Source of the DNA: Eledone cirrhosa
Taxonomy: Eukaryota
NCBI GenBank assembly: GCA_964016885.1
Contig: OZ024743.1
Span: 45,508,001-45,572,000, forward strand
Length of the DNA stretch: 64,000 nucleotides
Reading direction: 5' to 3'
The notes below the pieces were generated by a model. The model had not been told where the DNA came from and searched no databases. It was given only the letters and a program-made list of their open reading frames with translations. Position numbers and translations under genes: made by a program. Below are positions 5,001 to 56,444 of this stretch, piece by piece; within the stretch, counting starts at the first letter, position 1; every line of letters begins with the position of its first letter.

Positions 5001-5255
5001 ATAAAGTTAAATAAAAGTCAAATGATTAAAATTTAGCTTCGTTTATTACTGCTATATATATTTCAGTGACAGCCATCTTTGGCTGTGACCTCTTCAGGCA
5101 GTTTGAATTAGTATGGTATAGACAAGTACATATGTTGTTTAGGTGTAAAATATTGTCAATACTCTGATATGCCCAGTTCCTTGTTTGGTTGTTAATTCAC
5201 TGAGGAATTAACGAAGCTAAATTTTACTCATTTGACTTTTATTTAACTTTATTTT
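5001..5255 (-). mobile_element. Solo pLTR/3' end of a Penelope-like family with short inverted duplication
   Basis: Reverse-complement match to ~43650-43840; 5001-5043 is inverted-duplicated at ~5209-5252. Confidence 0.65.
5048..5102 (-). ncRNA. Type-I hammerhead ribozyme
   Basis: RC: actgc CTGAAGA gg tcacagcc aaagat ggctgtcact GAAA tatata TA gcagt; 5-bp stem I. Confidence 0.75.
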
Positions 5256-5274
5256 ATATATATATATATATATA

Positions 5275-7960
5275 AACAATGAAATAAAAACAAAGAACAG
5301 GTTCCTTATATTGAATAAATCATCATTTTACGATCGTTTCTGGGATATATATGTGTGTGTTGGTATGTATATCATATTAAAGATCTATGTAAAAAAATAT
5401 TACAAATTATCAGAGGAGATATACATACCTTCACTTATATATGCCATCTTCTGAAATGATGTATGTTTATTGTAAGAAACAAAGTATTAATACAGAAGGT
5501 CTGTTTGGGAACAGGTTTTGAATCGACCAATAGAAAATAGTTAGAAGTTGATAGAATAACAGTAGTAGAATTTTATGCTAGGAGTGGAGGAGTGTAAATT
5601 TATGCTTTGAATGAAAATAATACAGTGGAGAAGACAGAGATAGGGGTTAAAATGAGGTCAAGTCAATGAGATAGTGAAGGATTCCCCCCAAAATAAATTG
5701 ATGTTATTAAAGAATGCTGTTAAAAGTTAAGGAAAAATAATTTTTTGTGAGATGAGAGTGTCAGTGAGAAATACTACTCCTGTTTAAATTTCAAGGAACC
5801 TAGATACATGAAAGGAAATTAAATCAATTGATAGGTATACTTTCAGAATTAAAATTATATTAATTCTTATGAATGTGATAAATAAAGAGGTAAACAAATT
5901 TATAAAGAAAGACTGAAATAGATAAAATGTTATAAAAAGTAGTGTATCTATCTAAACATCCATAATATTAAAGATATTAATTATATTTACTAATCCTAGG
6001 CATTAAATAATCCTAGGTATTAAATGTGATAGATAGGGGATACGGTTAAAAGAAGTAGTGAGGTTAAAGATAACTTTAGGTAAAGTGAGCTGCAAGAGGA
6101 AAATAAAATAATGAAATTCTTTGTAGTAAATATCTAATTATAGGTTAACTAAATTTTAAAATAAATTTTTTTAATTAATTATAATAGTTTGTAAAATATA
6201 AGAGTGAGGTAAATATTAATTAAGTTTATAATATTTTGAGGTTTTTCTAATTCTATGATTGCATGATATAATTAACTCATGTCGCTTATTTAATAGGATA
6301 TCATTAGATTTCATGATTTCAAATAGAACTTGGGAGCATAACTTACACTCATATCTGCTATTTTGATAAGAGGTGGCCCTTTTGAGCACGCTCCAGGTCA
6401 GGTTGTAATCAATGTCCTTCTTTCTATAATTATTAATTGCTTCAGCCAAGGCGGTTGTATTAGTTAATGCGACATTTTTAAAACTATGTTTGTGTGTATT
6501 AAATCTTACTTTAAATTGGTTAGACGTAGCTCCTATATAGGATTGAGTGGAGTCCTTAGTACTAATTACACATTTATAGACTATGTTATTAATAAGACAA
6601 TTTCCCTTTAATGGACAATTTCTTTTAATTCTACAGTTACAGCCATTCGTAAATATTGTATCAGGAGAGTTAATTGTGTTATCTATAGTGGTATTAGTGT
6701 TACTATTTTCATTAATGTATGGTTTAAAATGGGTTGTAATTAGTATTGTTAGACAGGTTGTTGGCGGATGATAGTTTAGGGGATGTGGAGCTAGTAGAGT
6801 TCTGTTTGTTATGGAGATTATTAGTCAAAATTGGTGTGGAGTTTACGGGACCTATTATAGGTGAAGAAGAAGGTGGTTTGTTTTGGTTTACTTTAGTATT
6901 ATTAAGGTTGGTTTGATGTGTTGGTGGTATATTTATGGGTTTTTTACACTTATATCCCTCTTCATTTTCCTCTATTTCTGTTTCATCTTCCTCACCTACC
7001 CTTCCTCGTAGCTTATATTCTGTTGTATATTCTTGGTGGTGGAGTAGGAAAATGTGACAGTAGATCTATTTCAAATTTGATGGTATTTATGGTTTGGTGG
7101 GTAGTTTTTCTTTAGGATAGCAAATAATATTTTAGGGATATTGTCTTTAATCTGTAGATTAAATGGAGCATTATACCAAGTAACCTGTCTATTACGGTTT
7201 CGACATTGTTTCTTATATTTATATGATGTATCGGGAGGTTTACTGAGAGAGTTACTATTAGTGATTTTATTATATATAGGTTTAGTTAGATTAATTTGAT
7301 GTTTCAGTTTGATTACTAGGAATTTTGTTAGTTATGTTGTTGACATATGTAAGAGTATTAGGATGAATGGTTTTTGAAAATCATTATCTTTTATGTGAGA
7401 AGAGGTAGAGAAAATTAAATTTTGGGTTGGTGTTTTTAGGTGTAGTATGAGTGGCATTTAGGTGTGGGTTTTCATTTGGTGTTTGTTGGTAATATTAGGT
7501 TGTATGTTTGAAATATTATTGGTGCAAGGTATATAGACTAATTTGTTCTTATGGCCGCTTCTAGCTAAAGCTTCATTATAAAAGGGCGCGTTTTTATCGA
7601 ATACATCATGATTTGATGAAAGGTTAGAGATTCTGAGTGAGATATAATATGCTAGGTTTTTAAGGATAGATATAGGGTGATTAGATTGTGAGTGTATGTA
7701 ATGCAAGTTTTGGTTAGGTTTATGGTAAGGTTGGTAGATACCTGTGGATAGGTCCATAGTTATATCCAGGAAATTGACTATTTTACTGGTATTTTCAAAT
7801 GTAATAGTGAGATTATAATAGTCTTTGAGGAAAGTTCTAATAAGTTTTTTATCTTTCAATTTCTGATCGGCTAAGATTAGTGGATAGAAGAAGACAGTCA
7901 TCACGATATAAACCACCTTTAAGGTGGGGAAAAGATGAATTAATGTTAAATAGAAGAAAA
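5275..7960 (-). mobile_element. Degenerate Penelope-like element (Hydra-type): RT C-half, GIY-YIG, 3' UTR/pLTR
   Basis: GGLYRDD (~7900-7920), VNFLDITM..YQPYHKPN..SNHP, CNC-x5-CPL..CL..NIVY..YIGATSN.FK, C-terminal CKLC..LNKRHE..SCNH; frameshifted; bounded by (TA)n. Confidence 0.85.
5321..5461 (-). ncRNA. Hammerhead ribozyme with long branched stem II (core reads CAGAAGA in this copy)
   Basis: RC: catcattt CAGAAGA tgg...~100 nt incl. ggtatgtatatc/gatatacatacc helix...cca GAAAC gatc GTA aaatgatg; 8-bp stem I, palindromic GATC loop. Confidence 0.65.
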
Positions 7961-8142
7961 AAAAAATATATATATATATATATATATATATATATATATA
8001 TATATATATATATATATATATATATATATAGGTTATAGATTCCATATACTGGTGGTTTTTTCCCTGTTTTATTGAATGCGCACTGTATATCTCTCTCTGG
8101 TGTGTTACCTTTTCAACATATTGTATTTTATATATATATATA

Positions 8143-8440
8143 CTAGCATTAAAGCCCGGCGTTGCTCGGGGTCAGTAAGTTACCAAAGTTAGGTTGCACC
8201 ACCCATTTTATGGCAGCACTTTTTTGTCTGCCAGGCACTGGGTGAATGAATTGCAGACCTGGACTGCCGAAGCAGGAGCTGCGCCAGCAATGACAATTGT
8301 AGTTTCGCCTATGGATATTATCTCTGTGCAAAGAAGTGTTGAAATTTATTGTTTCACAGTACTTGCGCAACACGCGCGTAGACGATGCCAGCCGAACAAC
8401 AGAGCTGCGATGGAGTTGTTCTGCATGGTTGTCTAATGTG
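8143..8440 (-). mobile_element. Helitron-like 3' terminus (extent uncertain)
   Basis: CTAG next to (TA)n, preceded on the minus strand by GC hairpin cccggcgttgctcggg, similar to 50460 and 44842. Confidence 0.45.
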
Positions 8441-9115
8441 TGTTTTCTAAATTTAAGACAGTAGAGAAGGGTGTGATATGGGGGAGAGGTAGCTGCTGTT
8501 TCTAGCAGGTTTAGTGACCTCATAGAGGATATTATTGTGTATAGTAAATGAACTGATACTTCTTTCTTCCACGTTCATTGATAGATGTTTTAAAAAAGAT
8601 TTATCGCTATTTTTTTGTTGTTGAATAAATTTATCTGTTGCTTTTGAACAATTGTTGTTTCGTATGAAATGAAATAAGTTCTCTTTGTCATTGAAGTAAA
8701 TACATGTTTGACCGTTCCACACTCAAAAACAAACGTTCTCTCTCTCTCTCTTAAAGTTTGTAAGTTTAATCATCATCATTATCTATAAAAGGCAGATTGT
8801 TGTTGTTGTTGTGTGTGTGTGTGCATGTTCCATGTTTATACATTTGCACAATTTCAAACCGATTCGACTCGAAGTCTTTAAGAATGTTGTAAATGGTCTA
8901 ACTTAGGTCAACAACTATTTATTTCATTCAAACTCACCCCCATTGCGGAAATAATAGATAAAACTAAATACATGACGCTTTACCCCTCTAATACAATCAG
9001 ATTTATTCTCTCTACTCCCCTGCATTAGAGAAAGTTGCAGCATGTATGTAGTTTTACAGAAATACTCGGCCGTCGAAACGGCTTGAGTTCTACCGTTGGG
9101 GTCATACATTTTCCT

Positions 9116-55447: not shown

Positions 55448-55492
55448 AGTCACTGAAGAGGTCACAGAGTGTGTGACGAAAGAACTATGACT
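55448..55492 (+). ncRNA. Type-I hammerhead ribozyme
   Basis: agtca CTGAAGA g gtcaca gagtg tgtgac GAAA gaac TA tgact. Confidence 0.72.
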
Positions 55493-55998
55493 ATATATAT
55501 ATATAAACAACTATCTGGTTGTGGAACCAACCAACCAACCAGAAATTTATAAATTTGTAAATTTATAAATATATATTAAATTAAATTGAAGTGAAAGCAA
55601 CTGGTGCGTGTGTTTCTTATTGGCAACATGACCCTCCCAAAGTATAACAATATATATATATATATATATATATATATATATATATATATATAGTTATATA
55701 TATATATGTATATCCATTAAGGGTGTAAGCAGCGATTCTTTGCTTAAACTTTTATTTTCATAAATATTTGCTCTATGGTTTTGTATATTTATATATATAT
55801 ATTATCCTTGTCAAGCCCACTTCGGATTTTAATCTTCACATTTATTATTATTACTATGTATATATATGTGTGTGTGTGTGTCTGTGTGTGTGTGTGTGTA
55901 AAAGGTAAACAGAAATAACAACACAATCGGTACAGTATATGGAAGGGATATATTAGGTTAACGCTTGATATATATACATAATTACAACAGTGACATAA

Positions 55999-56048
55999 AC
56001 AGGTACTCAAGTTTCATTAGGTTTTGGACCCCAATTCATTCAGCCTGT
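55999..56048 (-). ncRNA. Hammerhead with a one-nucleotide core insertion (CUGAAUGA)
   Basis: RC: acagg CTGAATGA attggg gtccaaaa cctaat GAAAC ttga GTA cctgt. Confidence 0.6.
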
Positions 56049-56402
56049 CATGGGAAAAATAAAAACAAAGAGTACCTGTTTATGTCACTGTTGTAATTAT
56101 TTATACTAAACTCGTCCTATGGACTGGGTGCTCTTTCTCTTGGCTCTTGGATATTTCCACTTAACCTTTACTTCAGTATATATATATATATATATATATA
56201 TATATATGAAAACAAGGAGAAAGAGACGTCTATTAGGGAGAAAAATATATTTTTTTCCTTTTTGTTTCTCTCTCTCTTTTTTCTGGGTTAGAAAATGATT
56301 AAAACGAAATGTTTTACTTCGTGTGAAGTGTTAAGTTATTAGTTGATTTATTTATTATTTAACAATTGCATTTATTTATCTATATATATATTTAATAATT
56401 GT

Positions 56403-56444
56403 CTATTACCGGTTTCAGCATTTTTATGCATTATCAAATGATAG
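56403..56444 (-). ncRNA. Minimal hammerhead, U3-A8 covariant core
   Basis: RC: ctatcat TTGATAA t gcat aaaa atgc t GAAACCGGTA atag; stem I weak. Confidence 0.5.

Follow-up and report, generated by a model that had tools for sequence, protein, structure and literature searches.

A stretch of 64,000 nucleotides from the Eledone cirrhosa genome (contig OZ024743.1 of assembly GCA_964016885.1, positions 45,508,001 to 45,572,000; hereafter the window) is rich in type-I hammerhead ribozyme folds, most of which appear to mark the ends of Penelope-like elements (PLEs). The window has a G+C content of 36% and many dinucleotide runs, and the genome from which it comes measures 3.0 Gb. Its recognisable reading frames are those of mobile elements, and no host gene was recognised among the window reading frames and Pfam matches. 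An earlier note on this DNA had listed about 23 type-I folds in more than 12 unrelated families, and both statements hold: each of the 23 coordinates marks an end of one type-I hammerhead (the plus strand carries 12 of these folds, the minus strand 11), and self-comparison of the window sequence, by which families and insertions were grouped, yields 15 families. The 23 folds represent only 19 insertions, four pairs being two ends or two units of a single insertion, and two further folds were found outside the list (at 13057 and 61883). The core is perfect (CUGANGA or the covarying UUGANAA) in 17 of the 23, including four of the U3-A8 form; two folds (5321 and 47218) carry private core mutations in a family with the consensus CUGAAGA, and four (32703, 37747, 37441 and 55999) carry variants that are general in their families. 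At the level of the family consensus, 12 of 15 window families have a canonical core.

The folds differ widely in the length of stem II, which spans 46-107 nt in 11 of the 23. The four longest stem II regions (92-94 nt in 10422/12720 and 106-107 nt in 5321/47218) are computed to form a stable closed hairpin of -22 to -28 kcal/mol. The weakest folds are 26689 and 56403, in which stem I has 2 bp, and 40215, in which stem II is unstable; their relatives fold better. The palindromic helix III ascribed to the sites is perfect in 11 of the 23 and has one mismatched pair in 8 others. The polyadenylation-like motif said often to follow the sites directly was recovered in part: in 10 of 23 folds an AAUAAA follows no more than 45 nt from the cleavage site (background 5.7%).

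Folds were located with a type-I descriptor built for this analysis (stem I, 7-nt core, stem II region, GAAA, helix III and UH) and fitted to each listed coordinate. Initial strict descriptors caught only 5-8 folds because they disallowed an unpaired base after A9, the U3-A8 pair and a long stem II. Rfam gave no match within the window at the gathering score; its E-value scan of the window was dominated by microsatellite sequences resembling miRNAs, and the best hammerhead match among the 150 of 258 matches listed (HH9, 24506-24576) reached 28.5 of 52 bits. Within the window, 15 perfect-core matches scored 8 or more, compared with 0.37 in 30 local dinucleotide shuffles; 13 of these are listed sites and one is probably false. 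This excess is not independent, since the descriptor had been tuned on the window itself, and for that reason a blind sample was fetched, comprising 60 evenly spaced, hand-picked stretches of 10 kb (600 kb on 19 contigs), none of which was used for tuning. Searched with the fixed descriptor, the sample gave 85 matches, whereas its 8 shuffles gave 2.5 and the reversed sequence gave none; removal of 12 matches from one satellite (stretch L037) left 73 hammerheads. A third descriptor, in which core positions 3, 4, 8 and 17 and helix III were unscored, gave 43 matches against 4.0 in the control. Although left free, these positions were C3-G8 or U3-A8 in 34 of the 43, with U4 in 33 of the 34; among those 33, G17 never occurred and 17 had a perfect palindrome. 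Covariation was assessed in 32 relatives of the 13132 fold, a subset of 42 chosen for distinctness, in which 97% of cells are paired and 8 of 20 pairs, the palindrome included, have changed on both sides; none of 500 shuffles attained the covariation score, and slid controls are 34-60% paired. In a Neptune set of 14 copies, two of six stem II pairs are compensatory. The shuffle and covariation checks that the earlier note had proposed both came out in favour of the folds, and the folds of this excess are not due to chance.

The net density of strict-core motifs (stem II of up to 70 nt) in the blind sample is 118 per Mb (bootstrap 71-169), or about one per 8.5 kb. Extrapolation gives about 350,000 such motifs in the genome (212,000-507,000), or 307,000 without a tandem array in stretch L038. 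The claim of one fold per 3 kb is accurate for the window and overstates the genome, because the window has about twice the strict-core density of the blind sample, and strict cores reach genome-wide about a third of the claimed density; variants and decayed copies would add to the genome figure. In only 32 of the 73 blind-sample folds is the stem II region no longer than 24 nt. Published counts include about 2,000 plus 1,300 in Schistosoma, 4,000 in coelacanth and 9,000 in Xenopus (PMC4209133; here and below, statements on several cited works, this one included, concern the available portions of those sources), together with more than 6,000 in Acropora, 5,000 in mussel and up to 120,000 in axolotl (28 Gb). 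The estimated total would exceed these per-genome counts, in a comparison that is rough because the descriptors differ. The proposal of a very large and under-annotated system is borne out by the genome-wide excess and by the lack of window matches in Rfam at the gathering score.

The parentage of the folds agrees with the claim that they are hammerheads of the kind found in the pseudo-long terminal repeats (pLTRs) of PLEs, as the families of 14 of the 23 sites could be linked to Hydra-type or Neptune-type PLEs. These calls follow sequence motifs as defined in PMC8557442 and not placement on a reverse transcriptase (RT) tree. Five of the RT-GIY-YIG pieces in the window have a CxCx5C linker (A to E), and two have DKSG and Cx4CxxC. 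Hydra-clade motifs include DKTG in D and F, YRDD in D and RWR in F, and the inspected F copy lacks the first linker cysteine; the Hydra-type insertions have (TA)n targets, with the GIY-YIG domain at the C-terminus. Judged by these motifs, A to E (and F) are assigned to Hydra-type PLEs and the DKSG/Cx4CxxC elements to Neptune-type PLEs. The association is one-sided: in the blind sample, a hammerhead on the same strand lies within 2 kb downstream of the domain in 11 of 14 GIY-YIG domains and upstream in none, and the fold is found 0.3-1.7 kb past the domain. Copies linked to an endonuclease amount to 12 of 45 in family A, 3/14 in E, 25/172 in F, 3/49 in D and 7/14 in C, and to 4/12 and 4/20 in the Neptune families; the blind sample has only 16 endonuclease matches beside its 73 hammerheads. 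The layer consists mostly of 5'-truncated element ends, and its high density likely arises because insertions are copied from the 3' end and are usually truncated early.

The insertions themselves show the anatomy of PLEs, with 5' truncation, an optional tail, (TA)n ends and inverted 5' copies (10422/12720, 38008/39355 and the palindrome at 52556). Copies span both sides of the cleavage site, and the next dinucleotide run follows within 0-290 nt in 13 of 15 families. A self-duplex through helix III is computed to be more stable than the hairpin in all 15 families, and the hairpin is unfavourable in 13; family F and the Neptune families lack the palindromic helix III that would call for a dimer. 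The coordinates of the folds and of their parent elements are collected in Table 1.

Table 1. Hammerhead folds and associated mobile-element parts; positions are counted from the first nucleotide of the window.
Position	Strand	Feature	Remark
5048-5102	-	Hammerhead, CUGAAGA core, palindromic helix III, AAUAAA 5 nt past cleavage site; orphan 3' end of PLE family E	93% to 43632-43840
5321-5461	-	Hammerhead, 106-nt stem II, 3' end of Hydra-type PLE A; private U4A, canonical family consensus	
6216-8171	-	Broken open reading frame (ORF) of Hydra-type PLE A: RT C-terminus, CxCx5C linker, GIY-YIG	
9284-10235	+	Non-coding retrozyme-like insertion, 1.6 units of 593-bp repeat, longest ATG ORF 48 aa	
9316-9405	+	Hammerhead, U3-A8 core, 59-nt stem II, 10-nt palindrome	
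9909-9998	+	Second tandem copy of 9316 hammerhead, 593 bp downstream	
10419-10547	-	Hammerhead, 94-nt stem II, within inverted 5' copy of PLE B	
10647-11864	+	Hydra-type PLE B ORF, 5'-truncated and frameshifted	
12717-12843	+	Hammerhead, 92-nt stem II, 3' end of PLE B; stem I 3' strand formed by AAUAAA	
13057-13127	-	Inverted partner of 13132 fold, G at core position 3	
13132-13196	+	Hammerhead of diverse family; stem II and palindrome covary	
18135-18170	-	Minimal hammerhead; helix III is ACGU, an additional nucleotide follows A9	
22291-22899	+	GIY-YIG part of Hydra-type PLE C	
24519-24556	+	Compact canonical hammerhead, 3' end of PLE C	At 7/14 other loci, one element carries both hammerhead and endonuclease
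26690-26727	-	Hammerhead, 3' end of Neptune-type PLE; stem I weak in this copy	
27033-29399	-	Neptune-type PLE body, 737-aa frame: DKSG, YVDD, Cx4CxxC, GIY-YIG	
32688-32764	+	Family F fold: CAGAAGA (U4A) core, U.U at 10.1/11.1, 5-bp helix III, extended stem I	
33800-35849	+	Broken ORF of Hydra-type PLE D: DKTG, YRDD, CxCx5C, GIY-YIG	
37441-37527	+	Hammerhead, 3' end of PLE D, CCGUCGA core (U4C plus A6U), family majority form	
37731-37808	+	Another family F (U4A) fold; short orphan end flanked by (TA)n runs	
37969-39468	+	Non-coding element with inverted 5' copy; ~1.2-kb body common to other loci; likely non-autonomous	
38008-38082	-	Hammerhead in inverted copy of 37969-39468 element, 46-nt stem II	
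39355-39429	+	Hammerhead, 3' end of 37969-39468 element	
40216-40258	+	U3-A8 hammerhead, stem II weak in this copy	
41641-42565		PLE E: GIY-YIG part on + (41903-42565), inverted RT piece before it on - (41641-42240)	
43733-43788	+	Hammerhead, 3' end of PLE E	
47217-47360	-	Family A hammerhead, private C3U change	
50147-50236	-	Canonical-core hammerhead, 51-nt stem II	
52556-55653		3.1-kb palindromic insertion of Neptune-type PLE, arms 99.8% alike	
52715-52759	-	Hammerhead, left arm end of 52556-55653 palindrome	
55448-55492	+	Hammerhead, right arm end of 52556-55653 palindrome	
55998-56049	-	Hammerhead, 8-nt core CUGAAYGA (one-base insertion), family-level	
56405-56439	-	U3-A8 hammerhead, decayed; CCGG palindrome, stem I of 2 bp	
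61883-61966	+	Canonical-core hammerhead fold, single copy in sequence examined	

Four of the sites (9316, 9909, 38008 and 39355) lie in non-coding repeats that resemble retrozymes. The 9316 family has a 593-bp unit present in one to three copies and the 39355 family a body of about 1.2 kb; no endonuclease was found in the 20 loci examined for the former, nor upstream of the element in the 20 examined for the latter. A third case, in stretches L038 and L176, is a tandem array of a 556-bp non-coding unit that extends over at least 16 kb, with an intact hammerhead in 29 of the 29 units seen. The combination that characterises retrozymes, namely a non-coding tandem unit of low G+C content with one type-I hammerhead, is found in the 9316 family and in this array, and only partly in the 39355 family, whose spacing is irregular (530-1375). 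Families 9316 and 39355 are likely non-autonomous repeats of the retrozyme type.

Taken as a whole, the folds are best read as type-I hammerheads in the pLTRs of Hydra-type and Neptune-type PLEs together with likely non-autonomous retrozyme-type repeats, with a probability of about 0.8; their identity as PLE and retrozyme hammerheads, considered by itself, can be stated with high confidence. The suggestion of a new or separate ribozyme layer was not supported, as these are known PLE and retrozyme hammerheads at element ends, and the features listed for them are published (PMC4209133). Several observations weigh against the whole reading. The endonuclease link is seen in one of three copies of family B, that of the window alone, and in 2 of 31 copies of family 13132, and the shuffle behind the 13132 covariation test ignores the relatedness of the copies. 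For 5 of the 23 listed sites (18134, 40215, 50150, 55999 and 56403) no parent element was found in the loci examined, which gave no parent ORF for the further fold at 61883 either; the pLTR position, after the RT-GIY-YIG ORF and again before it in tandems, is seen in only 8 of 15 families. In the Neptune folds (26689, 52715 and 55448), helix III is a poor palindrome and does not form a stable hairpin. Moreover, hammerhead mutants had no effect on PLE insertion in vitro (PMC11167929), and eight of nine Xenopus retrozyme dimers showed no cleavage in vitro (bioRxiv 10.64898/2026.07.22.740005).

The arrangement suggests how such ends could accumulate. Reverse transcription of an RNA that is uncut, tandem or circular would begin at a point downstream of the hammerhead and would mostly end early, so that the hammerhead end accumulates, and fold-back would double it. 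A tandem transcript with two hammerheads could pair through the palindromic helix III and be cut as a dimer, probably with the aid of an element protein, the RNA then being trimmed or circularised. Most copies in the genome would be dead ends and probably never undergo cleavage. That the masters of the canonical families cleave as dimers is moderately favoured, on the basis of PMC4209133, PMC6765202 and the helix III energies; in one system, a PLE hammerhead cuts only with protein (PMC11167929).

The part of this system that is new is the amplification of three families (F, 37441 and 55999) with non-canonical cores. Family F (32703 and 37747) has the core CAGAAGA, and an exact pattern found 25,984 copies with A4 genome-wide, 870 with U4 and none for the controls. 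Inspection of 30 U4 (CUGA) matches showed 24 fold-back junctions, 3 similar cases with indels and 1 clearly native copy, and native U4 copies number at most a few score. A4 is present in 88 of 90 ungapped copies and in 11 of 12 5' pLTRs preceding the ORF; at 12 of 30 ORF-start loci the motif lies about 200 nt before the ATG, in the tandem pLTR-ORF layout. In older F subfamilies in which position 4 was left free (n=89), 85 copies have A, 4 have G and none has U, and position 7 is A in 59, U in 29 and G in 1. Compared with the main family, these subfamilies have changed at 1 of 34 stem and core positions and at 11 of 30 loop and flank positions (Fisher p 0.0008, which is indicative because the copies are related; the test used pattern-free positions in 21 of 30 loci, those in which the upstream arm is retained). 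Helix III of the fold has 5 bp and stem I has a second segment of 9 bp, although in the computed minimum-energy structure the core is paired to loop III instead. The family F end is present in contigs of sequencing runs X4 and X5, although contigs cannot show RNA ends.

A canonical sister subfamily of F was considered and rejected, since most of the inspected CUGA matches are fold-back junctions and none of 89 older copies has U4; a U4A common to family A was likewise rejected, the change occurring only in the window copy and at one other locus. No report of a natural U4A was found among the literature matches listed, a scope outside which the main paper on PLE variants falls, and U4A does not occur in the available portion of PMC3088659. 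Family F fold-back often falls exactly at the core, with 24 of the 30 inspected CUGA matches being inverted junctions centred on position 4, a micro-palindrome; if this share holds, some 700-800 such core junctions exist genome-wide. Recent activity is suggested by two copies (L233 and L234) that possess a 5' pLTR and a frame uninterrupted for at least 662 codons.

The other two families depart from the canonical core in different ways. Among the first 100 of 1,186 matches to family 37441, obtained with a search pattern that favours young copies, 73 have CCGUCGA, 12 CUGACGA, 10 CCGACGA and 5 other cores. A tree of 41 copies (128 columns, with a canonical outlier as reference) places CCGUCGA in a derived and most uniform group, with modest support from a short alignment. 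Family 55999 has the 8-nt core CUGAAYGA in 11 of 11 copies. Natural variants with U4C, an insertion after A6, U3-A8 and U10.1.U11.1 have been described, the first two with low activity (PMC3088659), and a mutational scan found all CUGA-turn mutants except a C-G swap to be low in activity (PMC9901934). The non-canonical cores are predicted to be poor cutters because of this published mutagenesis. Either the fold matters more than the cut in these families, or the cores would be new active variants. Their amplification makes it likely that the cut is dispensable for the spread of these three families and that the fold is kept.

For the layer as a whole, three other origins were weighed. Chance folding in A+T-rich, microsatellite-rich DNA does occur, as the 12 false matches with a UUGAAAA core from the A+T-rich satellite in L037 and a few weak, probably accidental matches such as 44393-44458 indicate; as a general explanation it has next to no likelihood in the face of the shuffled, reversed-sequence and free-position controls, the covariation and the one-sided link to GIY-YIG. 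A regulatory layer of ribozymes in non-coding DNA, selected by the host, would fit the very high density and the AAUAAA near 10 of 23 sites, but it is very improbable: every family checked is a dispersed young repeat with copies 91-99% identical, core mutations are private to single copies, and host genes went unrecognised in the window. The layer might instead derive mainly from non-autonomous retrozyme circles and not from PLE ends, as the monomers to trimers of the 9316 unit, the array of at least 29 units in L038/L176 and the lack of endonucleases in 20 of 20 loci for 9316 and upstream in 20 of 20 for 39355 would suggest. This is improbable too, since 14 of the 23 sites fall in families linked to GIY-YIG ORFs and only 4 are retrozyme-like.

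A more serious alternative concerns what the fold is for. It may be kept mainly as a structure, as a protein-binding or reverse-transcription landmark, with self-cleavage unneeded even in canonical families. The at least 25,984 U4A copies of family F with conserved stems and free loops, the U4C plus A6U majority of family 37441 (73 among 100 matches listed), the low activity of CUGA-turn mutants other than the C-G swap (PMC9901934) and the catalytic mutants of PMC11167929, with insertion unchanged in vitro and RNA ends at the site not found, are all consistent with this. However, 12 of the 15 window families have a canonical consensus core, and across unrelated families the catalytic letters are kept where they were left free (U4 in 33/34, no G17, covarying C3-G8 or U3-A8), which argues for selection on catalysis in most lineages; extended to the canonical families, the structural explanation is rather unlikely. 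Within family F itself, retention of the fold without useful cleavage is slightly favoured; drift that has not yet visibly affected the stems is a weaker candidate, and an active variant a weaker one still. In that last, doubtful case, the most prolific Hydra-type PLE lineage would carry a new natural A4 variant (CAGANGA), retained over several generations of subfamilies with fixed stems and free loops, that still cleaves, probably helped by an element protein or by the extended stem I. Were it active, the A4 core would, together with those of the CCGUCGA and CUGAAYGA families, extend the range of hammerhead cores, and descriptor searches would be missing whole high-copy families.

Other repeats share the window with these elements. 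A candidate fold at 38366-38489 (-), with a perfect core, a 99-nt stem II and a score of 7.6, lies antisense within the 37969-39468 element; nested inverted repeats at 39703-40427 place two 3' halves of the 40215 hammerhead back to back; and truncated copies of families A and F at 48139-48334 (+) and 55714-55854 (+) keep only the 3' half of the hammerhead. An LTR retrotransposon of Gypsy-type order at 57122-61815 has 438-bp LTRs that are 98% alike, with RT, RNase H and integrase on the minus strand in several frames. Directly after the 13057/13132 pair, a long interspersed nuclear element (LINE) at 13233-15839 (+) has endonuclease (Exo_endo_phos_2) and RT in three frames, and pieces of one LINE-type RT family, 93% alike, occur at 33043-33687 and 62309-63296, one of them lying as an insertion at the beginning of PLE D. 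Six copies, 80-92% alike, belong to a 180-bp repeat in which no hammerhead match occurs (2388-2567, 4144-4326, 16838-17020, 18595-18777, 19148-19305 and 51885-52077). The frames at 2-1952 presumably represent the C-terminal part of a non-LTR element, with no Pfam match at E 0.01, and a 164-aa frame at 49394-49888 (+), also without a Pfam match, is taken from its motifs to be a Tc1/mariner-like transposase.

PLE hammerheads are near-universal in PLEs and yet slow in vitro and dispensable in the sole reconstituted system. Canonical families beside young, abundant ones in which core positions regarded as essential have changed and the stems are kept amount to a natural experiment, and with these families selection for the cut versus selection for the fold in PLE mobility becomes testable.

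In the main, this is a known arrangement, to which scale, very long stem II regions and amplified non-canonical cores are added. The PLE hammerheads of PMC4209133, for which a palindromic helix III, the need for a dimer and the U3-A8 core are published, are likewise type-I folds in pLTRs, mostly at single truncated ends and sometimes in opposite-strand pairs, with a palindromic 15.2-16.2/loop 3, an unpaired nucleotide after A9 and many families per genome. They differ in having a stem II of 7-8 bp, compared with 46-107 nt in 11 of 23 folds here, and in their reported number (2,000-9,000 with another descriptor, against an estimated 350,000 or so), and the main text of that paper contains no family-level U4A, U4C plus A6U or insertion cores. 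Hydra-clade PLEs (PMC8557442) share DKT, RW(K/R), CxCx5C, a C-terminal GIY-YIG, (TA)n targets, a hammerhead near the 3' end and, in many entries, U.U at 10.1/11.1; however, the Hydra entries in its File S2 all combine a CUGANGA core with a short stem II, and few families are known there outside cnidarians, compared with at least six in 64 kb here, one with tens of thousands of copies. Neptune-clade PLEs have the same Cx2-5CxxC linker before GIY-YIG, DKSG, inverted insertions and a hammerhead about 0.3 kb past the ORF, whereas helix III here (AGAACU) is a poor palindrome, the clade being called from motifs. Non-LTR retrozymes (PMC7229834; bioRxiv 10.64898/2026.07.22.740005) are also non-coding, have a G+C content below 45% and one type-I hammerhead per tandem unit, range from monomers to long arrays and share genomes with PLEs; the retrozyme-like repeats described here differ in their units of 556-593 bp (about 1.2-1.4 kb for 39355), their long stem II and the U3-A8 pair of 9316. 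Finally, U4C, the insertion after A6, U3-A8 and U10.1.U11.1 all have natural counterparts in PMC3088659, which describes them as isolated and uncommon cases in viroids and phages, whereas here they are majority forms of amplified families.

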